The notes beneath the pieces were generated by a model. That model had not been told where the DNA came from and made no database searches. It worked only from the letters and a program-made list of their open reading frames with translations. The translations under genes and the position numbers were made by a program. Below are positions 9,231 through 58,432 of a DNA stretch of 64,000 bases, piece after piece; positions within the stretch are counted from its first letter, which is position 1; every line of letters begins with the position of its first letter. Source of the stretch: Felis catus (taxonomy: Eukaryota); NCBI RefSeq assembly GCF_018350175.1, contig NC_058368.1:55430001-55494000 (forward strand), written 5' to 3'.

Positions 9231-9411
9231 TCTAATCTGTCAAACCACTTTCTACACCCAGACCAAAAGACACCTAGGATCTAGCATCTCTAGCATCATC
9301 TATTCGATTTTTGTGTGGGTGTGTTTTTAATTTTTAATTTTAATATTTTTTTAATTTTAATTTTTGTAATTTCAATTTTTCTACCTCATTAATTCCTTTT
9401 CTCCCTTCAAA

Positions 9412-10282: not shown

Positions 10283-10396
10283 GGGGAGAAAAGATGAAAA
10301 TATATATACATATATAAATAAATAAATACCAAATGCAACAAAAGATTAGAAAGAACCAGAGAACCCACTAGAAACTCCAACTCTACAAGCATCATA

Positions 10397-13300
10397 ATGG
10401 CAATAAATTCATATATTTCAGTACTCTAAACGTCTATGGATTCAATGCTCCAATCAAAAGACATAGGCTAACAGAATGGATAAGAAAACAAGACCCATCT
10501 ATATGCTGTTTACAAGAAACCCACTTTAGACCTAAAGACACCTACAGATTGAAAATAAAGGGATGGAGAAGCATTTATCATGCTAATGGTCAACAAAAGA
10601 AAGCCAGAGTAACCATACTTATATCAGACAAACTAGACTTTAAAATAAAGACTGTATCAAGAGATGCAGAAGGGCATAATATCATAATCAAAGGGTCTAT
10701 AGACCAAGAAAACCTAACAATTGTAAACATTAATGCGCCAAATGTGAAAGCACCCAAATATATAAATCAATTAATCACAAACATAAAGAAACCCATCGAT
10801 AGTAATACCATAATAGTAGGAGATTTCAACGCCGCATTCACAGCAATGGACAGATCATCTACTCAAAAAATCAACAAGGAAACAATGGCTTTGAATGACA
10901 CACTGGACTGGATGGACTTAAAGTATATATTCAGAACATTTCATCCTACAGCAGCAGAATATACATTCTTCTCCAGTGCACATGGAACGTTCTCCAGAAT
11001 AGACCATATACTGGGACACAAGTCAGCCCTAAGTAAGTACAAAAAGATCGAGATCATACCGTGCATATTTTCAGACACAATGCTATGAAACTCGAAATCA
11101 ACCACAAGAAAAAATTTGGAAAGGTAACAAATACTTGGAGACTGAGGAACATCCTACTAAAGAATGAATGGGCTAACCAAGCAGTTAAAGAAGAAATTAA
11201 AAAGTATATGAAGGTCAATGAAAATGATAATACCACAACCCAAAACCTCTGGGACACAGCAAAGGCAGTCATAAGAGGAAAGTATATAGCAATCCAGGCC
11301 TTCCTAAAAAAGGAAGAAAGATCTCAGATACACAACCTAACCTTATGCCTTAAGGAGCTAGAAAAAGAACAGCAAATAAAACCCCAAACGACCAGAAGAC
11401 AGGAAATAATAAAGATTAGAGCAGAAATTAATGCTATCAAAACCAAAAAACAAAACAAAACAAAACAGTAGAGCAGATCAATGAAACCAGAAGCTGGTTC
11501 TTTGAAAGAATTAACAAAATTGATAAACCACTAGCCAGTTTGATCAAGAAGAAAAAGGAAAGGACCCAAATAAGTAAAATCAAGAATGAAAGAGGAGAAA
11601 TCACAACCAACACAACAGAAATAAAAACAATAATAAGAGAATATTATGAACAATTATATGCCAATAAAATGGGCAATATGGAAGAAATGGACAAATTCCT
11701 AGAAACATATACACTATCAAAACTGAAACAGGAAGAAATAGAAAATTTGAACACACCCATAACCAGTAAGGAACTCGAATTAGTAATCAAAAATCTGCCA
11801 AAAAACAAGAGTCCAGGGCCAGATGGCTTTCCAGGGGAGTTCTACCAAACATTTAAGGAAGAGTTAACACCTATTCTCTTGAAACTGTTCCAAAAAATAG
11901 AAATGGAAGCAAAACTTCCAAACTCTTTCTATGAAGCCAGCATTACCCTGATTCCAAAACCAGACAGAGACCCCACCAAAAAGGAGAACTATAGACCAAT
12001 TTCCCTGATGAACATGGATGCCAAAATCCTCAACAAGATATTAGCCAACCGGCTTCAACAATACATTAAAAACAATTATTCACCACGACCAAGTAGGATT
12101 TATACCTGGGATGCAGGGCTGTTTCAATATCTAAAAAACAATTAACATGATTCATCACATTAATAAAAGAAAGGACAAGAACCATATCATCCTCTCAATA
12201 GATGCAGAGGAAGCATTTGACAAAATACAGAATCCTTTCTTGATAAAATCCCTCAAGAAAGTAGGGATAGATGGAGCATATCTCGAGATCATAAAAGCCA
12301 TATATGAATGACCCAACGCTAAGATCCTCCTCAATAGGGAAAAACTGAGAGCTTTCCCCCTAAGGTCAGGAACAAGACAGGGATGTCCACTCTTGCCACT
12401 GTTATTCAACATAGTATGGGAAATCTTAGCCTCTACAATCAGACAACACAATAAATAAAAGGCATCCAGATCATCCAGGAGGAGGTCAAACTTTCACTCT
12501 TTGCAGAAGCATGATACTCTATATGGAAAAAACAAAATATTCTACCAAAAAACTGCTAGAATTGATCCATGAATTCAAGAAGTTACAGGATATAAATCTA
12601 TACACAGGAATCGGTTACCTTCCTATACACCAACATTGAAGGGACAGAAAGAGAAATCAAGGAATTGATCCCATTTACAGTTGAACCAGAAACCATGAAA
12701 CACCTAGGAATAAATCAAACCAACGAGGTGAAAAATCTGTACACTGAAAACTGTAGAAACCTTATGAAAGAAACTGAAGAAGACAAAAAAATGGAAAAAG
12801 ATTCCATGCTCCTGGATAGGAAGAACAAATATTGTTCAAATGTCGATACTACCCAAAGCAATCTACATATTCAACGCAATCCCTATCAAAGTAACACCAG
12901 CATACTTCACAGAGCTAGAACAAATAATCCTAAAATTTGTACGGAACCAGAAAAGACCCCAAATAACCAAAGCAATCTTGAAACAGAAAACCAGGGGCGC
13001 CTGGGTGGCGCAGTCGGTTAAGCGTCCGACTTCAGCCAGGTCACGATCTCACGGTCCGGGAGTTCGAGCCCCGCGTCAGGCTCTGGGCTGATGGCTCAGA
13101 GCCTGGAGCCTGTTTCCGATTCTGTGTCTCCCTCTCTCTCTGCCCCTCCCCCGTTCATGCTCTGTCTCTCTCTGTCCCAAAAATAAATAAACGTTGAAAA
13201 AAAAAATTTAAAAAAAAAAAAAAAAAAAAGAAAACCAAAGCAGGAGGCATCACAATCCAAGACCTCAAGCTATACTACAAAGCTGTAATCATCAAGACAG

Positions 13301-14451
13301 TATGGTACTGGCACAAAAACAGACACTCAGATCAATGGAACAGAATAGAGAACCCAGAAATGGACCCACAAACGTATGGCCAACTCATCTTTGACAAAGC
13401 AGGAAAGAATATCCAATGGAATAAAGACAGCCTCTTCAGCAAGTGGTGCTGGGAAAACTGGACAACGACAGGTAGAAGAAAGAACCTGGACCACTTTCTT
13501 ACACCATACACAAAAATAAACTCAAAGTGAATGAATGACCTCAATGTAAGACAGGAAGCCATCAAAATCTTCAAGGAGAAAGCAGGCAAAACCTCTTTGA
13601 TCTTGCCCGTGGCAATTTTTTACTCAACATGTCTCCAGAGGCAAGGGAATCAAAAGCAAAAATGAGCTCCTGGGACCTCATCAAAATAAAAAGCTTCTGC
13701 ACAGCAAAGGAAACAATCAGCAAAACTAAAAGGCAACTGACAGAATGGGAGAAGATATTTGCAAATGACATATCAGATAAAGGGTTAGTATCCAAAATCT
13801 ACAAAGAATTTATCAAACTCAACACCGAAAAAACAAATAATCCAGTGAAGAATGGGCAAAAGACATGAGTAGACACTTCTCCAAAGAAGACATCCAGATG
13901 GCCAGCCGACACATGAAAAAATGCTCAACTTCACTCATCATCAGGGAAATACAAATCAAAACCACAATGAGATACCACCTTACACCTGTCAGAACGGCTA
14001 ACGTTAATAACTAGGCAACAACACATGTTGGTGAGGATGCCGAGAAAGAGGATCTCTTTTGCATTGTTGGTGGGAATGCAAACTGGTGCAGCCACTCTTG
14101 AAACAGTATGGGGGAACTAAAAATAGAACTACCCTATGACCCAGCAATTGCACTACTAGGCATTTATCCAAGGGATACAGGTGTGCTGTTTCGAAGGGAC
14201 ACATGCACCCCCAAGTTTATAGCAGCACTATCAACAGTAGCCAAAGTATGGAAAGAGCCCAAATGTCCATCGATGGATGAATGGATAAAGAAGAAATGGT
14301 ATATATATACAATGGAGTATTAGTCGGCAATCAAAAAGAATGAAATCTTGCCATTTGCAACTACGTGGATGGAATTGGAGGGTATTATGCTAAGTGAAAT
14401 TAGTCAGAGAAAGACAAAAATCATATGACTTCACTCATATGAGGACTTTAA
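10397..14451 (+). pseudogene. L1 ORF2p (EN/RT) pseudogene, many frameshifts and a SINE insertion
   Basis: Fragments containing [20 protein letters not shown] and RPISLMN; the FADD motif is frameshifted near 12505. Confidence 0.95.
12994..13228 (+). mobile_element. Young feline Can-SINE inserted into L1 ORF2
   Basis: ggggcgcctgggtggcgcagtcgg... with long A tail; TSD agaaaacca at 12985-12993 and 13229-13237. Confidence 0.97.
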
Positions 14452-14889
14452 GAGACAAAACAGATGAACATAAGGGAAGGGAATCAAAAATAATATAAAA
14501 ACAGGGAGGGGGACAAAACAAATAGACTCATAACTATGGAGAACAAACTGAGGGTTGCTGGAGGGGTTGTGGGAGGGGGGATGGGCTAAATGGGTAAGGG
14601 GCAATAAGGAATTTACTCCTGAAATCATTGCTTCAGTATATACTAATTTGGATGTAAATCTTAAAAATAAAAAAATAAAGTTAAATTATTTAAAAAAAAA
14701 TGAATTGTACTTCTTTCTAGTCAGTATAAATTTTCTTTGTTTTTCATCTTTTTCACACTTCATACATGTTCTTTCCCAGTTCAAGGAGTACACTTTTATT
14801 CCTTGGATCTTAGAGTTTTTATCATAACTGTACATTCAATTCTGTCCGATGCTTTTTTTAAAATCTACTGAGATAAGCATTTTTGTTTC

Positions 14890-30087: not shown

Positions 30088-31112
30088 TAAAATGTAAAAA
30101 AAATTCTTAGTTTATATGCAGTGGGATGGTTTTGGCCATTAGACCATAGTTTCCTGACTTCTGATCTAATTTTCTGATTATTTTTTTCTATTTATCATAA
30201 ATGGTATGTACAGAATATAAAAACAATATATAGTAAAATGTATTTCTAGGAATCTTTTTATTATTACTACAATTGCATTTAGGTTTAGAATATACTTGGA
30301 CTAATCTATATTTTTTTAGTTTGCAGTTTAACACATGCTTAAATATGTTACAGATACTTGAGATAAAGTAGAAGTTATAAATTCATACGTTTTTTCAGAC
30401 TGTTAAGCAAATTCCCCAACAATATGCATTGGATGATTGTTTGAGTTGTAGAGAAAGAGTTTGAAATCCATTCTTGGTCCACATAAAAAATTCTTAACCT
30501 TTATTTGATTCAGCACACATTATCTGCACTTTATAATAATTGGTTCAATAGAAAGATGCATATATTATTTATGAATTAACTGTAAAATCTTAAAATCAGC
30601 ATTATTTAAGAAGAGAAAATGAGAGTAATTCATCTCTCATAAATTGTGTATGTAATAGTAAAGAAATATTTTTCCTAGTATTTTAGAGAAGTTCTCCAAG
30701 TTGAAAATAAATATAAGATTCTAAAAGCCAAAAATTATAAGTCCTAAATATTCTTAATTAAAAAAAATCATAAATCCATGCACTTTTAGTTATCAGTTTT
30801 TCAGAAGGCTGTATGTATGTTATCTTTCTACTAATCTAACTCTATCATAACTTGTAAATATAATATTGGAGAGAGTATGATTTTGCAAGACTTCAATTTA
30901 TAGCCTCAGTAGAAACAGAAAGCTTTTTTTAAAGGTAAGAGTTTACTTATTCAGGTGCTGATTGAGGTTGTGAGAGAAAATTCAAAGCGGTATGACAATT
31001 TAAAAACCTTCATGATAAAACAGAAATATAAGAATATTTATTAATATATAAGATTTAGGACAAAAAATACACAAAATTTGATCCATGGTAAGAAAAAAAA
31101 ACATATTTTTCT

Positions 31113-31349
31113 TTTTTTTTCTTTTTTTTTTTTTAATTTTTTTTTTCAACGTTTATTTATTTTTGGGACAGAGAGAGACAGAGCATGAACAGGGGAGGGG
31201 CAGAGAGAGAGGGAGACACAGAATCGGAAACAGGCTCCAGGCTCTGAGCCATCAGCCCAGAGCCCGACGCGGGGCTCGAACTCACGGACCGCCAGATCGT
31301 GACCTGGTTGAAGTCGGACGCTCAACCGACTGCGCCACCCAGGCGCCCC
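31113..31349 (-). mobile_element. Young feline Can-SINE
   Basis: Perfect TSD aaaaaacatatttttct at 31096-31112 and 31350-31366. Confidence 0.97.
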
Positions 31350-32054
31350 AAAAAACATATTTTTCTATTTATATCTACGTTATACTTTTAAACCCTCCTT
31401 TACTTTGTGTAAGTGTAGATATCCCTAATAATGCTGTTTTAAAATACTCTCCTTTATAAATCTGGACTCTAAATGTTTAATTGTATCATTATGAAATATG
31501 ACCAAAATTTCATGTTCCACATAATTAGTCACATTGGAAAACACGTTTTAAGTTGGTACTATTAATCCAGAACAACTTGGTGGCAAAGAGATATGAGAGT
31601 GATAATCTGAAATTATCTTCAAATTTAGAAACTCAAGTTCTCTGGCTATTCTCAAATCATCTATAACTTTATAGTGAATGCAAAGCTGTTTATCCACTTA
31701 TGGATCTAATTATTAATTGTAAGTTTTAAAAATACATTATACTCAATTCCCTTATATAGAGCTAGGAGAATCAGAACTGATAAAGGTTAGGAGACTGTCA
31801 AACTAAGTCCCCTCAAATACATTGACTACAAAATTCAATGGTTAAATGAGGAGTCACAGGGTGGATACTAGCTATTTTTATAGTTTTATATAATAGGCAA
31901 TATTTCAACCCACGTCAAATAACACCCACTTCTTAGGGGCCCTAAGCATAGACCATAATCATGAAGATTCCCTTAGCAATTCTGTGTCTGTGAAAAGCTA
32001 TCACCAGGATAACTCTAATTCTATGAGGGAAAATAGACCTGAACACTAAAGCTA

Positions 32055-33155: not shown

Positions 33156-34939
33156 TGGGGAGAGTAAGAAAGTTAAAATAATAGAGCACTGAGGCCAAAA
33201 ATGATGGTTTCTTGACAAAATTAATAAAATAGACTAAAATTCAGGAAATATGGAATACGACAAAAAAAAATTAGACTTACATTGTGTATGCCCAGTGCCA
33301 AGACCAATGTAATTCTTTTCATCTTTATCAGTTTAGTTTATCTTTATCAATTTAGTTTGATGCTCTATGTTGTTATCATTACTGCTTCTAATTTTCAGGC
33401 ACAAGATAGAAATGCAATGTCTCTACCATGTTTGTTTTTAGCTGTGGCCATGGGACTTGCTTTTTCCAATTAAATATAGTCAGAATTGGCATTTGTTAAT
33501 TCTGGGCAGAGGCTCTGAAAGCCATTTTATAACACACCATATTTGTTTTTTACCATACAGGGATTGTGCAAGTGCACATCAGAAAAATTATATAAAACCT
33601 GAATATTAGAAAATAAGGCAAAAAGGTGGGTGGCATGGCCTTTCAGTGACATGTGAAGATGGAGAGCAACCAAAGTCTGTTAAGAGGTTTTGGCTCTTGA
33701 AGACAGCTTCCAGCCTGTACAAAATTGTGTCACTTCAACTTAAAATGATCTTTGAGGCCCTATTGGAGAAAAACAAATTGAAAAAAAACTATGTGATTCC
33801 CAAGGAAGGTATATTTTCCGATACCTACTTCAGATATGGTCAAAAATATTTTTTCTTGCCAAGGTCCTGAGTGCACAAAAATACTGGCTATTTTCTTAAG
33901 ATCAATGTACTATGAAACTTGCGAGAAAAAATCAAAATGTGTAAAAAAGGTAAGAGTTTCTGGGGAGAAGAAATGTTTTTACATGTATATGTGTATATGT
34001 TAGAGGAGTGGTGATAGTGCTTTTGACCTTGGTCAGTACCTGGATTGTCATGGTGTGTGTGTGGGTGTATGGGTGTGTATGTGTGTGAAACATGGAAAGA
34101 ATACTGGCTCTCTGCCCTGACTTTTCACCTGCCATTGCTTTTGAGTAATCACTTCCTGCCCATACACCAGTGATAACTCATACCACTATTTCTGGCATTT
34201 CAGTGATAACTGGTCAGAAGACACAAAATGGTGAGCTGACAAACCATGTTGAAATTGACCAGGACAAATTAATATCAATTTGGATTTTCAAATAAGTGAG
34301 AAAGCCATGTCATACTTTAAGTTTGACATCTTATTTAAATGAATTTCAGTTATGGACTTGGGGAAAATATGTATGTTATTAAGGAAAAATAAGTTATATT
34401 TTAAAAATTATGACATTGAAATTCAAAGAAGTATTCTTTCCTTACTTATTTATTCACATATATCATTGTTTTTGCTATGTGAGTTTTTTTTATGTTCCTG
34501 CACTAATATCACACTATTCAGTAAAGTAGTAATACACTTAATTGATTGTGTTGCAAACATTCACTTCTCATTTTTTTTTACAGAAATGTTTTTAACTATT
34601 TGCATTGAATTATTCTTTCAGGTGAACTTTAGAAACACTTGGTCACATTTAAAAATTATTTTAGTATTTTTTTGAAATACTAAACTTATAATTTTTATGA
34701 AACCCTTATATAAATAATTATATTACAATAGTGATAATGTTTTGAAGGAAAAGTGGAAAATGTGAAAGCGATGTCAAAGTTTAGTTAAAATTTTATCTAT
34801 AAGATGATATTTAAACTGATATCTAAAGGATGAATAACTATGTAAATATCGATTTTTATATTTTTACTTTGTAAGTGGACACTTTAGTGAATCTTATTTC
34901 TAGGTATAATAGCTTTTAAATTGATTTCTCTAAGGTTTA

Positions 34940-35289
34940 TTTTATTTTATTTTTTTATTTTTTATTTTTTATTTTTTTTTCGTATTCAAGTAAAGCTTTT
35001 TAATTTAATTTTTAGAAATATATAATTCCATCAGAGAAAAATAAATGAAAGTAAGAGTTTCAACAAATAGGAAATGAAGATGGAATCTTGTTATTGCTCA
35101 GTTATACCATCCCTTCTAAAGAGGTTGAAGAAGTTAATCTAAGTTTGGAGAATAAAAAATCAGCTTTCCCTTATGGCGCTTTACAGACCCACAAATGGCA
35201 AAATCATTTATGAGATTTGTTAGATTGTACCTGTGGAGACATTTTATACTCTTTTTTTTTTTTTTTTTTTTTTGTTGTTGAATGAGTAA
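34940..35289 (-). other. L1 3'-transduced sequence (short tag + poly(A) + ~270-bp unique DNA + poly(A))
   Basis: Lies between the L1 poly(A) and the distal TSD copy at 34923-34939. ATTAAA occurs twice on the - strand (34999-35009), just upstream of the terminal poly(A). Confidence 0.88.
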
Positions 35290-35558
35290 TTTTATTTTAT
35301 TTTATTTTTTTTTGTTTTTTTTTTGTTTTTTTTTTATATGAAATTTATTGACAAATTGGTTTCCATACAACACCCAGTGCTCATCCCAAAAGGTGCCCTC
35401 CTCAATACCCATCACCCACCCTCTCCTCCCTCCCACCCCCCATCAACCCTCAGTTTGTTCTCAGTTTTTAAGAGTCTCTTATGCTTTGGCTCTCTCCCAC
35501 TCTAACCTGTTTTTTTTTTTTTTTCCTTCCCCTCCCCCATGGGTTCCTGTTAAGTTTC

Positions 35559-38500
35559 TCAGGGTCCACATAAGAGTGAAACCATATGGTATCTGTCTTT
35601 CTCTGTATGGCTTATTTCACTTAGCATCACACTCTCCAGTTCCATCCACGTTGCTACAAAAGGCCATATTTCATTTTTTCTCATTGCCACATAATATTCC
35701 ATTGTGTATATAAACCACAATTTCTTTATCCATTCATCAGGTGATGGACATTTAGGCTCTTTCCATAATTTGGCTATTGTTGAGAGTGCTGCTATGAACA
35801 TTGGGGTACAAGTGGCCCTATGCATCAGTACTCCTGTATCCCTTGGATAAATTCCTAGCAGTGCTATTGCTGGGTCATAGGGTAGGTCTATTTTTAATTT
35901 TCTGAGGAACCTCCACACTGCTTTCCAGAGCGGCTGCACCAATTTGCATTCCCACCAACAGTGCAACAGGGTTCCCGTTTCTCCACATCCTCTCCAGCAT
36001 CTAGAGTCTCCTGATTTGTTCATTTTGGCCACTCTGACTGACGTGAGGTGATACCTGAGTGTGGTTTTGATTTGTATTTCCCTGATAAGGAGCGACGCTG
36101 AACATCTTTTCATGTGCCTGTTGGCCATCCGGATGTCTTCTTTAGAGAAGTGTCTATTCATGTTTTCTGCCCATTTCTTCACTGGGTTATTTGTTTTTCG
36201 GGTGTGGAGTTTGGTGAGCTCTTTATAGATTTTGGATACTAGCCCTTTGTCCGATATGTCATTTGCGAATATCTTTTCCCATTCCGTTGGTTGCCTTTTA
36301 GTTTTGTTGGTTGTTTCCTTTGCTGTGCAGAAGCTTTTTATCTTCATAAGGTCCCAGTAATTCACTTTTGCTTTTAATTCCCTTGGCTTTGGGGATGTGT
36401 CGAGTAAGAGATTGCTACGGCTGAGGTCAGAGAGGTTTTTCCTGCTTTCTCCTCTAAGGTTTTGATGGTTTCCTGTCTCACATTTAGGTCCTTTATCCAT
36501 TTGGAGTTTATTTTTGTGAATGGTGTGAGAAAGTGGTCTAGTTTCAACCTTCTGCATGTTGCTGTCCAGTTCTCCCAGCACCATTTGTTAAAGAGGCTGT
36601 CTTTTTTCCATTGGATGTTCTTTCCTGCTTTGTCAAAGATGAGTTGGCCATACGTTTGTGGGTCTAGTTCTGGGGTTTCTATTCAATTCCATTGGTCTAT
36701 GTGTCTGTTTTTGTGCCAATACCATGCTGTCTTGATGATGACAGCTTTGTAGTAGAGGCTAAAGTCTGGGATTGTGATGCCTCCTGCTTTGGTCTTCTTC
36801 TTCAAAATTCCTTTGGCTATTCGGGGCCTTTTGTGGTTCCATATGAATTTTAGGATTGCTTGTTCTAGTTTCGAGAAGAATGCTGGTGCAATTTTGATTG
36901 GGATTGCATTGAATGTGTAGATAGCTTTGGGTAGTATTGACATTTTGACAATATTTATTTTTCCAATCCATGAGCAGGGAATGTCTTTCCATTTCTTTAA
37001 ATCTTCTTCAATTTCCTTCATAAGCTTTCTATAGTTTTCAGCATACAGATCCTTTACATCTTTGGTTAGATTTATTCCTAGGTATTTTATGCTTCTTGGT
37101 GCAATTGTGAATGGGATCAGTTTCTTTATTTGTCTTTCTGTTGCTTCATTGTTAGTGTATAAGAATGCAACTGATTTCTGTACATTGATTTTGTATCCTG
37201 CAACTTTGCTGAATTCCTGTATCAGTTCTAGTAGACTTTTGGTGGAGTCTATCGGATTTTCCATGTATAATATCATGTCATCTGCAAAAAGCGAAAGCTT
37301 GACTTCGTCTTTGCCAATTTTGATGCCTTTGATTTCCTTTTGTTGTCTGATTGCTGATGCTAGAACTTCCAGCACTATGTTAAACAGCAGCGGTGAGAGT
37401 GGGCATCCTTGTCGTGTTCCTGATCTCAGGGAAAAAGCTCTCAGTTTTTCCCCGTTGAGGATGATGTTAGCTGTGGGCTTTTCATAAATGGCTTTTATGA
37501 TCTTTAAGTATGTTCCTTCTATCCCGACTTTCTCAAGGGTTTTTATTAAGAAAGGGTGCTGGATTTTGTCAAAGGCCTTTTCTGCATCGATTGACAGGAT
37601 CATATGGTTCTTCTCTTTTTTTTTGTTAATGTGATGTATCACGTTGATTGATTTGCGAATGTTGAACCAGCCCTGCCTCCCAGGAATGAATCCCACTTGA
37701 TCATGGTGAATCATTCTTTTTATATGCCGTTGAATTCGATTTGCTAGTATCTTATTGAGAATTTTTGCATACATATTCATCAGGGATATTGACCTGTAGT
37801 TCTCTTTTTTTACTGGGTCTCTGTCTGGTTTAGGAATCAAAGTAATATTGGCTTCATAGAAGGAGTCTGGAAGTTTTCCTTCCCTTTCTATTTCTTGGAA
37901 TAGCTTGAGAAGGATAGGTATTATCTCTGCTTTAAACGTCTGGTAGAACTCCCCTGGGAAGCCATCTGGTCCTGGACTCTTATTTGTTGGGAGATTTTTG
38001 ATAACCGATTCAATTTCTTCGCTGGTTATGGGTCTGTTCAAGCTTTCTATTTCCTCCTGATTGAGTTTTGGAAGAGTGTGGGTGTTCAGGAATTGGTCCA
38101 TTTCTTCCAGGTTGTCCAATTTGTTGGCATATAATTTTTCATAGTATTCCCTGATAATTGTTTGTATCTCTAAGGGATTGGTTGTAATAATTCCATTTTC
38201 ATTCATGATTTTATCTATTTGGGTCATTTCCCTTTTCTTTTTGAGAAGCCTGGCTAGAGGTTTGTCAATTTTGTTTATTTTTTCAAAAAACCAACTCTTG
38301 GTTTCGTTGATTTGTTCTACAGTTTTTTTAGATTCTATATTGTTTATTTCTGCTCTGATCTTTATTATTTCTCTTCTTCTGCTGGGTTTAGGCTGCCTTT
38401 GCTGTTCTGCTTCTAGTTCCTTTAGGTGTGCTGTTAGATTTTGTATTTGGGATTTTTCTTGTTTCTTGAGATAGGCCTGGATTGCAATGTATTTTCCTCT

Positions 38501-39382
38501 CAGGACTGCCTTCGCTGCGTCCCAAAGCGTTTGGATTGTTGTATCTTCATTTTCGTTTGTTTCCATATATTTTTTAATTTCTTCTCTAATTGCCTGGTTG
38601 ACCCACTCATTCGTTAGTAGGGTGTTCTTTAACCTCCATGCCTTTGGAGGTTTTCCAGACTTTTTCCTGTGGTTGATTTCAAGCTTCATAGCATTGTGGT
38701 CTGAAAGTATGCATGGTATAATTTCAATTCTTGTAAACTTATGAAGGGCTGTTTTGTGACCCAGTATGTGATCTATCTTGGAGAATGTTCCATGTGCACT
38801 CGAGAAGAAAGTATATTCTGTTGCTTTGGGATGCAGCGTTCTAAATATATCTGTCAAGTCCATCTGATCCAATGTCTCATTCAGGGCCCTTGTTTCTTTA
38901 TTGACCGTGTGTCTAGATGATCTGTCCATTTCTGTAAGTGGGGTGTTAAAGTCCCCTGCAATTACCACATTCTTATCAATAAGGTTGCTTATGTTTATGA
39001 GTAATTGTTTTATATATTTGGGGGCTCCGGTATTCGGCGCATAGACATTTATAATTGTTAGCTCTTCCTGATGGATAGACCCTGTAATTATTATATAATG
39101 TCCTTCTGCATCTCTTGTTACAGCCTTTAATTTAAAGTCTAGTTTGTCTGATATAAGTATGGCTACTCCAGCTTTCTTTTGGCTTCCAGTCGTATGATAA
39201 ATAGTTCTCCATCCCCTCACTCTCAATCTAAAGGTGTCCTCAGGTCTAAAATGAGTCTCTTGTAGACAGCAAATAGATGGGTCTTGTTTTTTTATCCATT
39301 CTGATACCCTATGTCTTTTGGTTGGTGCATTTAATCCATTTACATTCAGTGTTATTATAGAAAGATACGGGTTGAGAGTCAT
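35559..39382 (-). pseudogene. L1 ORF2p (APE endonuclease, RT, CCHC) with one nonsense codon and one 1-nt deletion
   Basis: ATG at 39382 opens 899 aa (GDFN, SDH, PGPDGF, QGCPLSP, FADD) to TGA at 36683-36685. Frameshift in the T5 run at 36436-36440. C-terminal CWRGC...HCWWEC motif intact. Confidence 0.95.
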
Positions 39383-39432: not shown

Positions 39433-40326
39433 TCACAGGGTCCCCCTTAGGATCTCTTGTAGGGCTGGTTTAGTGGTGACAAATTCCTTCAGTTTTTGTT
39501 TGTTTGGGAAGACCTTTATCTCTCCTTCTATTCTAAATGACAGACTTGCTGGGTAAAGGATTCTCGGCTGCATATTTTTTCTGTCTAGCACCCTGAAAAT
39601 CTCGTGCCAATTCTTTCTGGCCTGCCAAGTTTCAAAAGAGAGATCAGTCACGAGGCTTATAGGTCTCCCTTTATATGTGAGGGCACGTTTACCCCTTGCT
39701 GCTTTCAGAATTTTCTCTTTATCCTTGTATTTTGCCAGTTTCACTATGATATGTCGTGCAGAAGATCGATTCAAGTTACACCTGAAGGGAGTTCTCTGTG
39801 CCTCTTGGATTTCAATGCCTTTTTCCTTCCCCAGTTCAGGGAAGTTCTCAGCTATTATTTCTTCAAGTACCCCTTCAGCACCTTTCCCTCTCTCTTCCTC
39901 CTCTGGGATACCAATTATGCGTATATTATTTCTTTTTAGTGTATCACTTAGTTCTCTAATTTTCCCCTCATACTCCTGGATTTTTTTATCTCTCTTTTTC
40001 TCAGCTTCCTCTTTTTCCATAACTTTATCTTCTAGTTCACCTATTCTCTCCTCTGCCTCTTCAAGCCGAGCTGTGGTGGTTTCCATTTTGTTATGCATTT
40101 CGTTTAAAGCGTTTTTCAGCTCCTCATGACTGTTCCTTAGTCCCTTGATCTCTGTAGCAAGAGATTCTCTGCTGTCCTGTATACTGTTTTCAAGCCCAGC
40201 GATTAATTTTATGACTATTATTCTAAATTCCCTTTCTGTTATATTATTTAAATCCTTTTTGATCAGCTCATCAGCTGTTGTTATTTCCTGGAGATTCTTC
40301 TGAGGGGAATTCTTCCGCTTGGTCAT
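39433..40326 (-). CDS. L1 ORF1p RNA-binding protein, intact 297 aa
   Basis: [10 protein letters not shown]...coiled coil...[11 protein letters not shown]...ARKNW...YPASL...[12 protein letters not shown], uninterrupted. Confidence 0.93.
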
Positions 40327-41256
40327 TTTGGATAGTCCCTGGCGTGGTGAGGACCTGCAGGGCACTTCCCCTGTGCTGTGGTGTATAACTGGAGTTGGTG
40401 GGCGGGGCCGCAGTCAGACCTGATGTCTGCCCCCAGCCCACCGCTGGGGCCACAGTCAGACTGGTGTGTGCCTTCTCTTCCCCTCTCCTAGGGGCGGGAT
40501 TCACTGTGGGGTGGTGTGGCCCGTCTGGGCTACTTGCACACTGCCAGGCTTGTGATGCTGGGGATCTGGCGTATTAGCTGGGGTGGGTAGGCAAGGTGCA
40601 CGGGGGTAGGAGGGGCAGGCTTAGATCGCTTCTCCTTAGGTGATCCTCTTCAGGAGGGGCCCTGTGGCAGCGGGAGGGAGTCAGATCCGCTGCCAGAGGT
40701 TTGGCTCCGCAGAAGCACAGAGTTGGGTGTTTGCGCGGAGCGAGCAAGTTCCCTGGCAGGAACTGGTTCTCTTTGGGATTTTGGCTGGGGGATGGGCAGG
40801 GGAGATGGCGCTGGCGAGCGCCTTTGTTCCCCACCAAGCTGAGCTCTGTCGTCAGGGGGCTCAGCAGCTCTCCCTCCCTTTGTCCTCCAGCCTTCCCGCT
40901 TTCCGAGCAGAGCTGTTAACTTATGACCTCCCAGACGCTAAGTCGCGCTTGTTGTGGGAACACAGTCCGTCAGGCCCCTCCGCTTTTGCCAGCCAGACTC
41001 GGGGGCTCTGCTTGGCTGGCGAGCCGCCCCTCCGCCCCGGCTCCCTCCCACCAGTCCGTGGAGCGCGCACCGCCTCGCAGCCCTTCCTACCCTCTTCCGT
41101 GGGCCTCTCGTCTGCGTTTGGCTCCGGCGACTCCGTTCTGCTAATCCTCTGGCGGTTCTCTGGGTTATTTAGGCAGGTGTAGGTGGAATCTAAGTGATCA
41201 GCAGGACGCGCGGTGAGCCCAGCGTCCTCCTAAGCCGCCATCTTGCCGCTTCTCCC
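40327..41256 (-). promoter_or_regulatory. L1 5'UTR internal promoter, CpG-rich, YY1 motif CAAGATGGCGG near the 5' end
   Basis: Many intact CpGs at 40650-41250; ccgccatcttg at 41235-41245. Confidence 0.8.
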
Positions 41257-42647
41257 GATTTCTCTAAGGTTTAAATGTAGACTATTACGTCAACTGCTGA
41301 TAATGAAAATTTTCATCTTTTCTAGTGTGAATTGGTGAAACTTCCAGGAAATAATCAAATCATACTAGTAATAGTGGGCATCAGCTTCTTAACCTTGCCC
41401 ATAACTAGACTAAGTGTGGTTTTCTCTCCATTGGTATGTTGTATCTTACATTATTAAATTAATGTCAACAATATATTCTGATTGCACCTCATCTTTAAAT
41501 TCATTTGTTTAAAGGTAACATCTTGTCCAAGAAATATTTGAATAAGAATTCAGATTTATCTGTAAGTGCAGGTAATAACTATGTGTTCATTATATGAAGA
41601 AAAACTATTATTTTTCTTCTTTTAATATTCATAATGATAAGTCAACATGTTATTCAGAATGTATTAAGTACTTCTGACACAAGGTTCTTTTCCTACTGTA
41701 TACGCTGCACAAAATTCTAACAACTAAATAGATGTAGAGTGATAAATTTGCACCGTCTTGTGTCCATGTAAGACTCATACTTAAATATCAAGAGCTAATT
41801 TGGTCTTACAGTTTCAACTTTACAAACGTAGTATTTACCTGATTTGGGATTATTAACATTCATAATTCAGATTACTAATATTTCCTGTTTTAGAAAACAT
41901 ATAGGCATATTGAAGAAAGTGGTATATGCAGAACATCTGTGTTACTATGAACAATGTGTGACTATCATTTGTGATCTGCTGTACACATTAATCATTTGTA
42001 AATCTAGTCTGATAGTTTTGGAATTGGGTTTCATCGTATTACATGGCTTGCAATAAATTGTACACATATTGATTCTTTAAGTATATTTAATCACATTCAA
42101 GTAGTCAACATTTCTTTTGTTACCAATCTCTCCAGTAATTATTTACCCGTACTGACTTCATTTTAGATACCTGGAAATGAACATACATATTGTGTTTGAA
42201 TTATTTCATGGGTGGTAGAAATCAATAAACTTAATTCCTTAATTACTCTTCTATTTCAAATCATTTCACATTAAGAATCATAATTATATGTCTCTGCTTT
42301 TGATATTAAAACAAACAGAATTCTGTACAGTAATGTGAGACAAGAGTGACTTATACTCAATATATGATCCAGTCCATTTTGATTTGCTACACCAGCTATG
42401 AAACGGCGAGGCAATAAATATGTCAAGGGAAAATTGTGAGGAAATTAGTTTAAACTGAATAAAAAAAGACCGCTCTCTTTCAAAACAAAAATCTGTGGTC
42501 ATTAACAGTACTAAATCTCTTATAAGCATGTTAAGTAACATTTTACAGTACAATACCCATGAATCATTGCTGAAAATATTGATGCACTAATTTCTCTGAC
42601 TTCTTCATGTAGAATATTTTTGAAATATTTTTAAAAATAAAATTTCA

Positions 42648-42880
42648 GGGGCGCCTGGGTGGCTCAGTCGGGTAAGTGTCCGACTTTGGCTCAGGTTATG
42701 ATCTCACAGTTTGTGGGTTCAAGCCCTGCATTGGACTCTGTGCTGACAGCTCAGAGCCTGGAGCCTGCTTCAGATTCTGTGTCTCCCCCTCTCTCTATGC
42801 CTCTCTCCTGCTTGTGTTCTCTCTGTCTCTCAAAAAAACAAATAAACATTAAAAAACATTTTTAAGAAATAAATAAAAAA
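42648..42880 (+). mobile_element. Can-SINE (first of a tandem cluster)
   Basis: ggggcgcctgggtggctcag... with A tail. Confidence 0.95.
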
Positions 42881-42890
42881 TATAATTTCA

Positions 42891-43110
42891 GGAGCGCCTG
42901 AGTGGCTCAGTCAGTTGAGCCTCTGACTTCAATTCAGGTAATGATCTTGTGCCTTGTGAGTTTGAGCCCCGCCATCAGGCTGTGTGCTGACAGCTCAGAG
43001 CCTGGAGCCTGTTTCGGATTCCGCGTCTCCGATTCTCTACTCCTCCCCTGCAGCACACTCTGTCCCTCTCTGTCTCAAAACAAATAAACTTAAAAAAATT
43101 AAAAATAAAT
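42891..43110 (+). mobile_element. Can-SINE (second of cluster)
   Basis: ggagcgcctgagtggctcag... with A tail. Confidence 0.95.
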
Positions 43111-43162
43111 AAAGTAAAATTTTAATTGGCTGCATCTTTTCCACTTAAAACATTATTCATCT

Positions 43163-43289
43163 GGAGCACCTGAGTGGCTCAGTCGGTTAAGCACGCAATT
43201 CTTCGTTTCAGCTGGGGTCATGATCTCAGGGTTTCCTGAGTTAGAGCCCCACACTGGACTCTGTGCTGACAGTGCAGAGCCTGTTTGGG

Positions 43290-43327
<38 letters not shown>

Positions 43328-43397
43328 CCTCCCCCACTCACACTGTCTCTGTCTCTCTCAAAATAAATAAAATTAAAAAAAAATTTAAAATAAAGAC
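43163..43397 (+). mobile_element. Can-SINE (third of cluster)
   Basis: TSD aaacattatt(c/t)atct at 43148-43162 and 43398-43412. Confidence 0.95.
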
Positions 43398-45819
43398 AAA
43401 CATTATTTATCTTTACAAAGTTTATATCATAGTCATATATACTATTTTCAATTTCCCCAGGAGTTAATTTAAAAACATTGACGAAAAAGATATAGAGATC
43501 TTAAATTTATTTTATAAATATGCATAAATATTGTGTACAACATGCTTAGATTCTTAGGGACAATTCTCAACAAATGCAGGACAAGAGTCAAAATTATCAA
43601 GTGGACACTGGAATGCTTTCACATAGCTCCTGAGAGGTTCATTTGGAAGCTTGCATCCTGATCACAGAGCAGTAGCTTACTCTTGAATTCCCAGATTTTA
43701 ATGACTTTTTTTTCCCCTGTCTAGTCCCCCACTTCTGATATATGTGATTGCTTTTGTAAATAGATTATCTGAACCAAAGCCTTATTTTGGAAGGAGCCTT
43801 AACTAAGACACATAGAGAAAAAACAAAATAAAACAAAAAAATGTTAATGAGTGTTGCTATAGTCAAGGATATATAAAAAGGTACTGCTAACAAATTATAT
43901 GCCTGACTTTTCTTCTCAGAAACTGCTATAATATTAACCAGGATTAGAACGGGTTTAGGATTGGTAGTATTTAGCATGAAACAGACATGTTTATTTAGAT
44001 AAATATAAACAATATAAGGCTTTTTGCATTCATAGGTGAAAGAAATAAAAAAAGATAAAGGAAGGAACGAAGGGAAGAAAGGAAGGAGAAAGAGAAGACA
44101 ACGAATGTGTGTGTGTGTAGAGAGAGAGACAAAAGACAGAGACAGGAAGAGACAGAGATGTGACAAATAGAATTCAATTTAGATTATTAGTATCTGATAA
44201 AATATCATCAAAAGTATGTCAATATATTGTCAAAAGAGGATAAATCTAATAAACATTTATAGTCATATCATGAATAGCTAGAATTCTTTCAAAAGCAGTT
44301 TATTCATATATCACAGTCATTATAAAAAGTAGTGATATTTTTCAATTAATTTAAAGAGGTAATATGAATCGTGTGGAACATTTATTTCCTCCATAGTGAT
44401 TTTCAGCAAAATTATATGTATTACTGAACAATTGCATGCTACCCCAAAAAGTATATTTTTATGTATATTGTTATATATCTGGTTTGTGGAATATGACAAA
44501 TCTATCACACTTATAAATAATTTTCAATTGACATGACAACATGAAAAATTTATTTATAAAATTTAAATATGAACACAGAATAACTGAAAATATAAAGACA
44601 TTTTTATTCGTGTCAGGGTAGCAGGTTCTTTCAGGTGACTTATGTTTCAATATTTTTCAAATTTTTAGAGTGTTTTATATTAATTTATATTACACCATTT
44701 CCAGTGAAATATAATTAGGTAGAGTTGCTGGTGTTTAAGGCTAACAAATACCAACCATCCTTTGTCAGATCTGTACTTCATCCTGATGTTTAGTTTGCAT
44801 CTATTTCAAAATTCCAATTGGTTCACAATTACTGCTAAATTTGCATAGTTTTTCTCAGATTTCAGTACTAGTACCCATACAATGATTATCCACTTACATG
44901 TCTTAGAAAAGGGGATTGATTTTAGAACATAATAGAACATGAGTATAGATCACTAATCTCTCTTCCAATATTTTTTTCCCAGCTAATCATGTGTTTATTA
45001 TTCCAGATAATCCAAGTTATGCTGTGGAAAACTCATCCCCAAACCCTCAGTGGAATAAGTGTTCATTTCTCTCTCCAGTTGTGTGTCCAGTGCATGAACT
45101 ATGGGCCATGCTTCAGAGGGTCCTTTATACTATGAAGTCAGCCAGAGGCTCAAACAGATGGATTCATCATGATACCAGCATCTCAATAGGTGACTTCAGA
45201 ATACACTGTGTCAGGGGGACAGTAAACTTTAGAATAGCATAAACCGCTTTGTGTCATATTTCATTGGCACTCAAATGCCAAAGGACTTAGATTATTTGGT
45301 GAAGATTACTTGTTTATTCATATGTTTGTACTTTTTTCTTCTTTTTAACATATCATACACAGTCAACCATCCCCAGAACAATTCCAGAATGTTGATGTGT
45401 GCTGTTTAGTAAGTTCAATGGGAGGTTTGGCTGTGGCTCTTCAAACTACAAACTAAAGGATAAATTACTTTTCATCTGCTGACTCCCAATATTCAATGGT
45501 GAAGTGTGGTCTAAATATCTGTACTAAATACTCTTAATCAGAAAGGGAGGAATAGAAGACCCTCAGTAGAAAAGGACTGTAGCATTTCTGAAATTCTGCT
45601 GAATAGGCAGTGTGAGCAGGCCCTACAATAGTGTTTGTGAGTATTTATTAATTAGACCCTGATTCCTCTCTATAGGATTTGTTTCATGTGGCACTACTTC
45701 CTATGGTCCTGTCCATGCCCTCAGGGATATGCTTCTTTATCCTTATTCTTCTTGGCTTCCCTTGGCCTTCCTTTGAGGGAATGTGCCTATCATGGATTTA
45801 TTAACCTTTTCATTTTATA

Positions 45820-52026: not shown

Positions 52027-53567
52027 CATGTTTCAATTTATTTATTTAGAGAGATCTTCAAGTTTAGCTTCTTAAAAATAACATTTTCCCAATCATAATC
52101 ATATCAAACTTCCCAAAATAAATATTTGATATATTTTAATGGTTTCTTTTGGGATACACTATTTCAATATTACCTACTTTAAGCACTTATAATTATCGAC
52201 TAATTTTCATCCTCAAAAAGCATGCACTGAGAGTTTTTTGTCTGGATATGCTAGTAATATAGTGATATGAACTTAAGAGGAAAAATACCAGAAACATTCA
52301 TGCAATAATTGCTAAGGAAAAACTATTTTTATAAGGTTAACCTTATTTTAATATTGATATTTTAACTCAGAAATCAATACCATTCCCATTGACCTTCTAT
52401 TTTTAATATTGTTGGCCTTGAGATTGATTATATAAAATAAAACCAGAAAAATTAGTGAAGGTAAAAGGCTTAATAGGAAATACATTTTATTCCCATCCTA
52501 TAAGTAACTTTTTGACATCTAAATAAAGTTATATTGTCCATTCTACTCTTTGAAGATAATTTCCCCATGGTTTTATTAAAAAAGAATTAAGACAATGTAA
52601 ATCTAGCACTGATAACTTCATGGTTAAGTACGTGGGTATGAGTAACTTTGGTTGAGTCTATGAAAATTCTTTTAGATACTGCACACATATATACACAGCA
52701 TCACTACCTACAGTCCACAAACTAAAAAATAAAAAATAAAACAACCAGAAACCAGTGAAGTGGAAAAGGTAATGAGACTACTACAATTGATTTCAGGAGG
52801 GAATTACATGAACATTTGTTTCTAATCCTTTTGTATACAATCCAATAATAAATTCCAATATCAGATTTAGGTTAATCTATCAGTATCTTTTTCTTTGAAG
52901 AGCTCTTTAAATTTTGTCTTGGATTATATGTACTATTAAACTTTTTAAAAGCATACGGGACATTTTTTAAAAATGTTGTTATAATTCTCTTTATGAGAAA
53001 GTGTATATTTCATCCACACTTCCACATTTATTAGAAAAGCATGGAAGTATTTATAATTTTTGAAATTGTTATTCTGTTTTTATATTCAGCTTCCCACTTC
53101 TAATATGCAAATGTGACTTTTTCCTGATATTGATTTTCTTTATTAAATTTTCTAACAGTTCATTAACTCTGCCTTCAAAAAAAGCCATTACGGTTTACAT
53201 TATCAATTATAATTTCTTAGGCCCATTTCCTTACCTTGTTAATTACCTTTCCTCAGATCTTGAATTAATAGTTAATTTATTTATTTTTTTTGTAGTTTCA
53301 AGTTTTCACTTAAATTTCAGTTAGTTAACACAGTGTAATATTAGTTTCAGGTGTAAAATTTAGTGATTCATCACTTACATACAACACCCTGTGTTTATCA
53401 CAAGTGCACTCCTTAATACCCATCACCCATTTAACTCATCCCTCTACCCATCTCCCCCCCCCCCCACAGCAACCCTCAGTTTGTTCTCTATGGTTAATAG
53501 TCTGTTTTATGGTTTGCCTCTCTCTCTCTCTCTCTCCCCCTTCCCCCATTCATCTGTTTTGTTTCTT

Positions 53568-53803
53568 TTTTTTTTTATTTAACGTGTGATTTTTTATTTA
53601 TTTTTTTGAAGTTTATTTATTTTGAGAGAGAGAGAGAGCACACAAGCAGGGGAGGGACAGAGAGAGAGAGAAAGAATCCCAAGCAGGCTCTGCACTGTCA
53701 GCACAGAGCCTGACTGGGGGCCCAAACTCATGAACCATGAGATCATGACCTAAGCTAAAATCAAGAGTTGGATGCTCAACTGACTGAGCTACCCAGACAC
53801 TCA
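53568..53803 (-). mobile_element. Can-SINE in L1 3'UTR
   Basis: Perfect TSD catctgttttgtttctt at 53551-53567 and 53804-53820. Confidence 0.95.
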
Positions 53804-53961
53804 CATCTGTTTTGTTTCTTAAATTCCATATATAAGTGAAATAATATGGTATTTGTCTTTCTTTGACTGAATTATTTAGTTTGGCATAATAATCTCTAGC
53901 TCCATCCATGTTGTTGTGAATGGCAAGATTACATTATTTTTTATGGCTGCATAATATTCCA

Positions 53962-53987
53962 GTGTGTGTGTGCGTGCGTGTGTGTGC

Positions 53988-54072
<85 letters not shown>

Positions 54073-54084
54073 TGTATATATATA
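53962..54084. repeat. Compound (TG)n(TA)n microsatellite grown inside L1 ORF2
   Basis: Expanded from the L1 tgtgtatata seed. Confidence 0.92.
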
Positions 54085-56351
54085 CCCTATATATAGGGTA
54101 GTTCTATTTTTAACTTTTTGAGAAACCTCCATACTGTTTTCCAGAATGGCTGTCCTAGCATGCATTCCCACCAATAGTGTAAGAGGACTCCCTTTCTCTG
54201 CCTCCTCACCAACATCTGTTGTTTCCTGTGTTGTTAATTTTAGCCATTCTGACAGGTATGAATGAGGTGGTATCTCATCGTGGTTTTGATTTTGTTTCCC
54301 TGATGATGAGTGATATTGAACATCTTTCATGTGTCTGTTAGCCATCTGTACATTCTCTTTGGAAATGTGTCTATCCATGTCTTCTGCCCATTTTTAAACT
54401 GGGTTATTTGTTTTTTGGGTGTTGTGTTTGATAAGTTCTTTATAGATTTTGGATACTAACACTTTATCAAATATGTCATTTGCAAATATCTTCTTCCATT
54501 CCAAGGTTGCCTTTTAGTTTTATTTGGTTGATTGTTTCCTTTGCTGTGCAGAGGCTATCTTGATGAGGTACAAATAGTTTATTTTTGCATTTGTTTCCCT
54601 TGCCTCAGGAGTTGTATTTAGTAAGAAGTTGCTATGGTAGATGTCAAAGGGGTTCCCACCTGTGTTCTCCTCTAGGGTTTTGATGGTTTCCTATCTTGCA
54701 TTTAGGCCTTTTATCCATTTTTAATTTGTTCTTGGTTATGGTGTAAGAAAGTGGTCCAGTTTCATTCTTTTGCATTTTGCTCTCCAGTTTTCCCAACACC
54801 ATTGGTTGAAGACACTGTCTTTTTTCCATCGGATATTCTTTCCTACTTTGTTGAAGGTTAGTTGGCCATATAGTTGTGGGTCCATTTCTGGGTTTTCTAT
54901 TCTGTTCCATTGGTCTATGAGTCTGTTTTTTTGCCAGCACCACAATCTCTTGATGACTATAGTTTTGTAATATAATTTGAAGTCCAGAATTGCGATGCCT
55001 CTAGCTTTCCTTTTGTTTCTCAAGATTGCTTTAGCTGTTTGTGGTCTTTTTTAGTTCAATATGAATTTTAGGATTGTTTGTAGGGGTTCTATCTCTGTGA
55101 AAAATGCTAGTGGTATTTTGATAGTGATTGTACTAAATGTGTAGATTGCTTTGTATAGTATCGACATTTTAACAATATTTCTTCTTCAAGTTCACGAGCA
55201 TGGAATGTTTTTCCATTTCTTTGTGTCATCTTGAATGTTATTCTAAGTGTTTTACAGTTTTTATAGTATAGATCTTTTATCTCTTTGATAAAAGATTTAT
55301 TCTTTTATTATTCTCAGTTATCCTATGTTTTATTCTCAGTTTATTCTCAGTTATCCTATGTTTTTTGGTGCAGTTGTAAATAGCATCAATTCCTTGGTGT
55401 CTCTTCTGCTTCATTCTTGGTTTACAGAATGCAACAGATTTCTGTAGGTTGATTTTGTATCCTGCAACTTTATTGAATTCATATATGAGGTCTAGCAATT
55501 TTTTGGTAGAGTGTTTTGGGTTTTGTACATAGAGTATCATGTTGCTTGCAATTAGTGAAAGTTTGATTCCTTCCTTGATGATTTGGATGCCTTTTATTTC
55601 TTTTTGTTGTCTAATTGCTGAGGCTAGGACTTCCAGTACTATGTTAAATAATAATGGTGAGAGTGAACATCCCTGTCTTGCTCCCAACCATAGAAGAAAA
55701 GCTCTCAGTTTTTCCCCATTGAGGATGATTTTAGCTGTGGGTCTTTTTATATGGCCTGAATGATGTTGAAGTATGTTTCCTTTATTCTTATTTTGTTGAA
55801 GATTTTTATCAAGAATGGCTGCTGTACTTTGTCAAATGCTTTTTCTGCATCTGTTGGAGGTCATGTGGTACTTATCCTTTCTTCTATTAATGTGGTGTGT
55901 ATCACGTTGATTGATTTGCAAATATTGAACCACGCTTGCAGCCCCAGAACAAATCCCACTTGATCATTGTGAGTGATAGTTTTAATGAACTCTTGGATTC
56001 AATTTGCTAGTATTGCTTGAGACTTTTTGCATGCATGTTCATCAGTGATATTGGCCTATATTTCTCATTTTTAGTAGAGTCTTTGTCTGGTTTTGAAATC
56101 AGGGTGATATTGACCTCATATAATGAGTTTGGAAGTTTTCCTTGCATTTATGTTTTGTGGATAGTTTGAGAAGAATAGTTATTAAATCTTCCTCAAATGT
56201 TTGGTAGAAATCCAGTGTGTCATTCAAAACCATTATTTCCTTGTTGATTTTCTGCTGAGATGATCTGTCCATTGTTGTAAATGGGATGTTAAAGTCCCTT
56301 ACTATTATTATATTATTATCAATGAGGTTTTTTTATGGTTGTTATTATTAA

Positions 56352-56576
56352 CTTTTTTCGTTTATTTATTTATTTTGAGAGGGACAGGGACGTAAAAGTA
56401 CAGGAAGGTAGAGAGAGAGGGAGTGAGAGAAAGAGAGAGAGAGAGAAAGAGAGAGAGAGAATCCCAGGCAGGCTCCACACTGCCAGTTCAGAGCTGGATG
56501 CTGGGCTCAAAACTGCAAACTGTGAGGTCATGAACCAAGAGTCAGACGCTTAACTGACTGAACCACCCAAGCACCC
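56352..56576 (-). mobile_element. Can-SINE in L1 EN region
   Basis: SINE body; flanking ttgttatta. Confidence 0.9.
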
Positions 56577-56747
56577 TACTTATATTTGTTATTAGCTGTT
56601 TTTATGTATTTGCCTTCCTCCAAGTTGGGGGAATAAATATTTACAATTGTGATCTTCTTGTTGGATAGGCCTCTTTATTATGATACAGTAGTCTTCTTCA
56701 TCTCTGTTACATACAGAGATGTCTTTGGTTTAAAATCTAGTTTTTCT

Positions 56748-56962
56748 GGGGCGCCTGGGTGGCTCAGTAGGTTAAGCGTCCGACTTCAGCCAGGTCACGA
56801 TCTCGCGGTCCCTGAGTTTGAGCCCCGCGTCAGGCTCTGGGCTGATGGCTCAGAGCCTGGAGCCTGTTTCCGATTCTGTGTCTCCCTCTCTCTCTGCCCC
56901 TCCCCCGTTCATGCTCTGTCTCTCTCTGTCCCAAAAAAAAAAAAAAAACGTTGAAAAAAAAA
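56748..56962 (+). mobile_element. Young feline Can-SINE in L1 EN region
   Basis: TSD taaaatctagtttttct at 56731-56747 and 56963-56979. Confidence 0.97.
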
Positions 56963-57139
56963 TAAAATCTAGTTTTTCTGATATAAGTATGGCTACTCCA
57001 GCTTTCTTCTGAATGTTAATGATAAATGTTTCTCTATCCCTTCATTTTCAAGCTTCAGGTTTTTTAGGTCTAAAATGAGTCCCCTATAGGCAACACATAG
57101 ATGGGTCTTCTTTATTTTATCCATTCTGACACCCTATGT

Positions 57140-57363
57140 TGTTTTTTTTTTAATTTTTTTTTGTTTATTTATTTTTGAGAGAGAGAGAGGCAGATTGCAA
57201 CTAGGGGGAGGGTCAGAGAGATAGGGACGCACAGAATTGGAAGTAGGCTCCAGGCTCTGAGCTGTCAGCACAGAGCCCGATAGGGAGCTCAAACCCATGA
57301 ACTGTGAGATCATGATCTGAGCTGAAGTCAGTCGCTTAACCAGCTGAGCCATCCAGGTGTCCC
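57140..57363 (-). mobile_element. Can-SINE in L1 ORF2 5' end
   Basis: Flanking ccctatgt repeat. Confidence 0.92.
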
Positions 57364-58432
57364 AGTGCCCTATGTCTTTTGATTAAAGATGTATTTCATT
57401 TACAGTCAGAATAATTATTGATAGATAAGGATTTAATGCTATTTTATTAATTGTTTGAAACGTCGTTGATTCTGGAGATTTTCTGTTTCTTTCTAGTCTT
57501 TGTCGCTTTGGGTCTTTCTTTCCCATTTAAAGAGTCCCCTTTAAATATTTCTTGCAAGGCTGTTTTAGTGGTCACAAACCCCTTTAGTTTTTGTTTGTCT
57601 GGGAAACTCTATATCTCCTTTTATTCTGAATTATAACCTTGCTGTATGGAGTATTCTTGGCTGCACATTTTTCCCATTCAGCACATTGTATCATGCGACT
57701 TCCTTCTGGCCTGCCAAGTTTCTGTGGAGACATCTACTGCTAATCTTGCTGGTTTTCCTTTGTAAATTAGGGACGGCTGTTGTCTTGCTGCTTTTAGGAT
57801 TTTTTCTTTATCTCTATATTTTGGAAATTTACGATATTTCATGTTGGTGGCCTGTTTTTGTTGATTTTGATGGGAGTTCTCTGTGCCTCCTAGATTTGGA
57901 TGTCTGTTTCTTTCCTCAGATTAGGTAAGTTTTCAGCTATAATTTCCTCAAATAAGCCTTCTGTTCCCTTTTCTCTCTCTTTTTCTCCTGAGACTTCTAT
58001 GATACGAATGTTACTATGCTTGATGGAATCATTGAGTTCCCTAAGTCTATTTTTGTGATCCAAAATTTTTCTTTCTCTTTTTTGTTCAGCTTCATTATTT
58101 TCCATAATTTTATATTCTATATTACGTATTTGCTCCTCTGCTTCTTCCATCCTGAGGTCATCATATGCCGTCAGTTATGAACCTCAGTTATTGCATTTTT
58201 CATTTCAGCCTGATTTTTTTGTAGCTCTTTTATGTCTGTGGTAAGGGTTTCCCTGATGTCTTCTATGATTTTCTTAGGCCCGGTGAATATCTTTATGATT
58301 GTTGCTTTAAATTATGAATCAGGCATATTACTTATATCTGTTTCAATTAAATCCCTGGCTATAAACTTTTCATGTTCTTTCTTTTGGATGAATTACTCTG
58401 TCTTGACATTTTGTCTAAATCTCTGTCTTCTC

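Follow-up and report, generated by a model that had tools for sequence, protein, structure and literature searches.

Results

The locus holds a full-length L1 enclosed by a target-site duplication

The window, a stretch of 64,000 nucleotides of Felis catus DNA, contains a full-length felid L1 on the minus strand at 41256-35336 (5,921 bp). All the hallmark modules of a mammalian L1 are present in it. A 5' UTR of 930 nt (40327..41256, 63% GC), which remains CpG-rich with an observed/expected ratio of 0.53 vs 0.25 for the window, is followed by an open ORF1 of 297 aa (39433..40326) that shows 97% identity to a cluster of 234 Felis catus L1 ORF1p members. The endonuclease and reverse transcriptase (RT) part of ORF2 spans 899 aa (36683..39382) and ends at a premature stop codon at 36683-36685, and the remainder of ORF2 (35559..36682) was followed by three-frame translation and has a frameshift near 36440. 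The 3' UTR (35336..35558) carries its own AATAAA at 35349-35344. Pfam domains PF02994, PF17490, PF03372 and PF00078 were detected in the two ORFs. Retrotransposition competence takes two intact ORFs; ORF2 is broken here by the stop and the frameshift, and the present copy is therefore unable to move on its own.

The L1 and all three of its A-rich tails lie within a target-site duplication (TSD). The 5' copy (41257..41273) abuts the start of the L1, and comparison of sequences within the window placed the 3' copy at 34923..34939. The two 17-mers are identical and stand where the original prediction had put them, the match ends there on both sides, and the 17-mer occurs exactly twice in the window. 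The computed chance of such a match is approximately 2e-10 per site, or 2e-7 over 1,000 sites. Judging from the letters at that edge, the T on the tail side of the duplication could have matched by coincidence, as part of the A4T pattern of the tail, and the true TSD would then measure 16 bp. With a 16-bp TSD the insertion site reads TT/AAAC, one letter off the endonuclease consensus TT/AAAA. Thus the TSD, a terminal poly(A) and an endonuclease-type site, the marks of a full-length mammalian L1 inserted by target-primed reverse transcription, are all found at this element.

Three tails separate two stretches of non-L1 DNA

On the minus strand, the L1 AATAAA (35349) is followed by tail 1, a short tag, a pure A-run, a 271-bp piece of non-L1 DNA, tail 3 and the TSD. 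This order and every coordinate agree to the base with what had been described from the letters, where the piece was put at about 270 bp. Tail 1 (35290..35335, 46 nt, 89% A) has an end with an A4T pattern, would represent the tail of a grandparent L1, and includes three AATAAA (35306, 35301 and 35296) that the original prediction did not mention. It is followed by a 16-nt tag (35274..35289) with its end at C then A, which is the candidate first transduction, derived from the TSD or flank of the grandparent. The end of the tag falls 27, 22 and 17 nt after the three AATAAA, and the tail-1 signals would account for the shortness of the tag. The next element, A22 (35252..35273), is pure A, presumably the tail of a parent L1, and the longest homopolymer in the window, which has 7 A runs of at least 15. 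The putative second transduction (34981..35251) contains two ATTAAA (35009 and 35004) whose ends lie 23 and 18 nt from the start of tail 3, as expected from the 18-23 nt given before. Tail 3 (34940..34980, 41 nt, 88% A), the tail of the present copy, is also patterned and includes six AATAAA.

The two sets of spacings, 17-27 and 18-23 nt, fall in the 10-30 nt range of human transduction ends. Since poly(A) signals are common in this AT-rich DNA (AATAAA at 1.9 and ATTAAA at 1.1 per kb per strand), the spacing of the signals is modest evidence. The six AATAAA of tail 3 lie 13-45 nt upstream of the outer end of the TSD, and a transcript of the present copy would be expected to gain another short tag from them. 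As in partnered 3' transductions, non-L1 DNA stands between the tail of the L1 and a terminal tail, all of it within the TSD, and a poly(A) signal precedes the terminal tail by 10-30 nt. We therefore consider it very likely that the element carries a real partnered 3' transduction.

The 271-bp piece had no second copy within the window (the best other BLAST match had an E value of 0.014), and the tag gave its one exact copy and one match with three mismatches, vs 1.6 expected by chance. A local origin of either was ruled out, as there was no local source within the window. Metagenome scans with a 26-nt part of the 271-bp piece and with the tail plus tag gave 0 matches; little cat DNA is expected there, and this zero is no evidence of absence.

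Other features of the window

Rfam and Pfam revealed no host gene in the window. Rfam gave 0 matches, and Pfam gave 0 families in 57 of the 77 stop-to-stop frames (at least 70 aa) outside the L1s, the other 20 being frames that overlap SINEs. Two older L1s are present. One, on the plus strand at approximately 9400-14700, has 78-81% identity to the young L1 and is split by a SINE at 12994-13234; upstream of it, at 8515-9123, lies an imperfect repeat with a period of about 232 bp. The other, on the minus strand at approximately 53400-58400, is about 68-79% identical to the other L1s, and the SINEs at 56747-56968 and 58433-58657 associated with it each lie within a 17-bp direct repeat. A further SINE at 31105-31352, with about 95% identity to several others in the window, is likewise flanked by a 17-bp direct repeat, and three SINE copies stand back to back at 42630-43410.

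Decay of the open reading frames

Of the 294 scored positions of ORF1, 4 are private residues, in comparison to 15 members, out of 40 retrieved from the cluster of 234. For ORF2 we found 8 derived residues over 581 positions with respect to one close relative, polarised by 14 mammalian outgroups, and 3 of these 8 sit in nearly invariant RT columns. That relative (P0223, 97% identity over 581 aa) was the single close one among the best 120 of 251 matches, and the dating of the L1 is rough for this reason. Both ORFs give a decay of about 1.4% derived residues, corresponding to about 0.6% per non-synonymous site, with a range of 0.16-1.5% when ORF1 is taken by itself. The neutral rate is near 2e-9 per site per year. 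At this rate, a decay of 0.6% would correspond to a few million years, unless part of it is parental or due to assembly error.

A second locus of the 271-bp piece in other DNA runs

We compared the stretch 33900-35345 with contigs of three DNA runs from three studies and with one raw RNA run. Positions 34929-34987 and 35239-35345 were filtered as repeats, so that the evidence comes from the geometry of the contigs and not from the letters of overhang, tag, tail or junction, and what is said about borders assumes that the filtered-out letters agree with the window. The 271-bp piece was present in 20 of the 24 runs listed. All its 26 words were found in 15 of those 20, all from one organism; one of these 15 runs may be the source of the window DNA.

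In run X10, a contig of 1,928 nt matched 34988-35238 with 0 differences (251/251) and continued for 238 letters upstream and 1,439 letters downstream. Had it followed the window, it would have reached 33549 on the flank, where X10 had zero depth in all bins of 34096-34781 and 34880-34977. The contig thus extends 1,439 nt into DNA other than this flank, and a second locus therefore exists. The geometry of the contig supports a second location of the 271-bp piece amid other DNA, where the piece continues without a poly(A). It is unlikely that the contig crosses a 46-nt A-tail into the end of a high-copy young L1, and for that reason the second locus in X10 looks empty of L1. That the contig is unbranched suggests that this animal does not carry the present copy; cleaning of the assembly graph could hide a branch.

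Run X8 gave a contig of 272 nt that ends at 35253 and 34982, i.e. at both borders of the 271-bp piece. Its depth was 46.9, compared to 10.5-31 in the 7 other X8 records listed. The chance of both ends falling at most 3 nt from both borders was between 5e-5 and 2e-3, assuming that contigs break once every 1000 to 166 nt. This geometry fits a segment that is common to different contexts. Upstream the contig takes in just two A's of A22, and base 34981, before tail 3, is not common. With just two A's shared upstream, one of the contexts would be without a long A-run, and A22 is therefore best read as an added tail. The contig ends agree with a parent site that is empty and has only two A's ahead of the piece. 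Together, X10 and X8 bear out the original prediction of a second locus for 34981-35251, by contig geometry.

The contig of 362 nt from run X5 had 34 letters upstream of 35238 and 77 letters downstream, with no break like that in X8. Upstream it would stop 21 letters into A22, and it may stem from a filled parent allele. The left flank (33900-34928) was covered by X5 contigs over 34385-34928 (0 differences in two that were listed) and was nearly without contigs in X8 and X10. The gaps in flank depth could be an artefact of the filter or a real absence; X8 is also without the flank. One X5 flank contig (record 15) runs 24 letters past 34928 and fits either allele of this site. The other reading of the record coordinates was rejected; it would end this contig exactly at the mask border with 24 loose letters. 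From the contig ends, some animals at least appear to have no parent L1 at the source site, a situation known as parentless transduction.

Altogether, 251 nt of the 271-bp piece were identical to contigs in all three DNA runs. An ORF decay of 0.6% leads to an expectation of about 3 differences over these 251 positions, and finding 0 (P about 0.05) sits uneasily with it.

RNA runs

No read of RNA run X23 fell on the 271-bp piece among 12.9 million records, about 1% of the run. All 96 matching reads fell on a GT-rich 35-nt motif at 34052-34088, which also drew most of the matching records listed and represents a simple-repeat artefact. The contigs of six RNA or possibly-RNA runs had 0.73-1.00 of the words of the 271-bp piece, and four of these runs, from four studies, had the same share of 0.85, which could reflect either a frequent SNP or the end of a transcript from the source locus. 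As these contig sets contain 418-1,887 million letters and may include host DNA, they were not counted as expression.

Discussion

A probable serial transduction over three L1 generations

From the TSD, the three tails, the distances of the signals and the second locus, we infer the following order of events. The tail of a grandparent L1, with its A4T-pattern end, would have supplied AATAAA, and the transcript would have been cut and polyadenylated 16 nt into the flank. The tagged RNA may then have been inserted immediately upstream of the 271-bp piece, with AAGA as the start of the target site, as deduced from the contig ends, to give a parent with tail 1, the tag and A22. A transcript of this parent would have passed its own signal and those of tail 1 and been cut 18-23 nt after the two ATTAAA, presumably those in use, 271 nt downstream. 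Such read-through would be explained by the lack of a signal in A22 and by the old signals now preceding A's in place of their original downstream element. Target-primed reverse transcription would have inserted a full-length copy of that RNA here, creating a TSD of 16-17 bp, and the ORF2 stop and frameshift probably arose after insertion. Neither the parent nor the grandparent L1 was seen in the contigs compared or in the metagenome scans, and both are deduced. The original prediction had read the tail as a serial, two-step 3' transduction, and the TSD, the tails, the signal distances and the second locus support that reading; we assign a probability of roughly 0.78 to a serial partnered 3' transduction across three L1 generations. 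Its further suggestion of a recently active lineage has to be toned down. The ORF2 stop, the frameshift and the approximately 1.4% derived residues weigh against it, although 251 nt of the piece are identical in three of three DNA runs; the broken ORF2 had not been noticed before.

A simpler history has two generations, with a parent L1 lying 16 nt upstream of a genomic A-tract and a single transduction that took up the tag, A22 and the 271 bp as one flank. A runs of this length class are no rarity in the window, and the X5 contig ends 21 letters into the position of A22 as if it met a long A-tract. However, the X8 contig breaks after two A's, which implies that one context has no long A-run, the X10 contig stays unbroken for 225 nt past the piece, and the tag finishes at a normal cleavage distance from three AATAAA, which together make this history unlikely. 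The L1-free source context that X8 and X10 suggest would also agree with a chimera, in which there was no parent L1 at the source and reverse transcription started from the 3' end of some unrelated transcript and switched over two A's to a tagged L1 tail; the 0.73-1.00 of words in the six RNA or possibly-RNA runs could then mean a transcript end. However, in the L1 chimeras described in the available text of PMC13174262 the foreign RNA lies on the 5' side of the L1, whereas the 271 bp of the cat lie 3' of it. Furthermore, the junction AAGA is an endonuclease-type site, TT/AGAA being termed near-perfect in PMC5932605, the X23 records (about 1% of that run) held no read of the piece, and parentless transductions are common in dogs (PMC13141329). 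Taken together, a chimera is quite improbable.

The 271 bp could also be a true transduction in which the tag is no flank, having entered as a short templated or untemplated insert within one long tail during an earlier integration. Sixteen nucleotides are too short to map with these data, and no tagged sibling or grandparent turned up in the window or the metagenome scan. The canonical spacing from the three AATAAA and the end at C-A argue against an insert, as does the frequency of short transductions between two tails in human tumours, where 248 of 349 were under 100 bp (PMC13009371), and L1 transductions down to 8 bp are on record (PMC9311842); we hold such an insert to be very improbable. 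Finally, no compared record spans a junction of the insertion, as would also be the case if the region were misassembled or the 271 bp native to this locus. The perfect TSD around the whole unit, the different context of the piece in X10 and the breaks of the X8 contig at both borders leave this a negligible chance. The serial transduction thus remains the preferred reading.

Relation to known transductions

The mechanism is established and the layout has already been published for the mouse; the finding will hardly surprise specialists. Schauer et al., 2018 (PMC5932605) described a full-length mouse L1 TF with serial 3' transductions in the order A52, 16 bp, A33, 682 bp and A38, an architecture like that of the cat element with 46, 16, 22, 271 and 41. 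The mouse event was somatic and de novo, and its donor, which is absent from the reference, was found, bore the 16-bp tag and was active in culture, whereas the cat copy is decayed and its donor deduced. In human L1 transduction families, progenitor, donor and offspring are linked by transduced tags, with 14 members mapped (PMC6425141). The cat element is alike in its linking tags and in an internal poly(A) before the 3' tag. However, according to the text available to us, the human families have one shared 3' tag together with 5' transductions, while the cat has one member with two stacked 3' tags.

Dogs, which also provide a carnivore L1, have parentless dimorphic LINE-1 3' transductions, in which other animals show no L1 at the site to which the piece maps; just 3 of 27 transductions had an L1 beside their mapped position (PMC13141329; reviewed in PMC13756887). 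The pipeline of PMC13141329 drops pieces below 25 bp, and a 16-nt tag would go unscored. No serial case was found in the accessible parts of these two dog papers, nor in those of PMC12350158, PMC13192797, PMC7581003 and bioRxiv 10.1101/2024.08.27.596794. In the short somatic L1 transductions of human tumours, too, a unique tag stands between two tails and ends 10-30 nt downstream of a signal; 274 of the 349 had a signal 10-30 nt before the end (PMC13009371). In the cat the signal lies within the patterned tail itself, and the available text of that study does not discuss the human events in that way.

A wider reading would be that the tail sets the length of the tag, with an A4T tail using its own AATAAA to give a tag of about 16 nt and a pure-A tail giving long read-through, so that stacked tails would record a family-wide pedigree, and that the parent still segregates as an intact active source, possibly in the 3' end of a transcript, with siblings carrying the same tag. 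Taken as a whole this reading is speculative, and we regard it as rather doubtful.

Our literature search, which misses most subscription journals, found no paper on L1 transductions in cats, and L1Base 2, using older assemblies, has 1 intact cat L1 vs 264 in dog (PMC5210629). The present element is of value as an entry point to L1 activity in cats, a subject that seems to have been little explored. It also offers a clear case in which the signal of a very short transduction comes from the patterned poly(A) tail. The 16-nt tag could lead to siblings and to the grandparent, and the 271 bp point to a parent locus that is seemingly empty in some animals and thus to a possible polymorphic source L1 in the cat.
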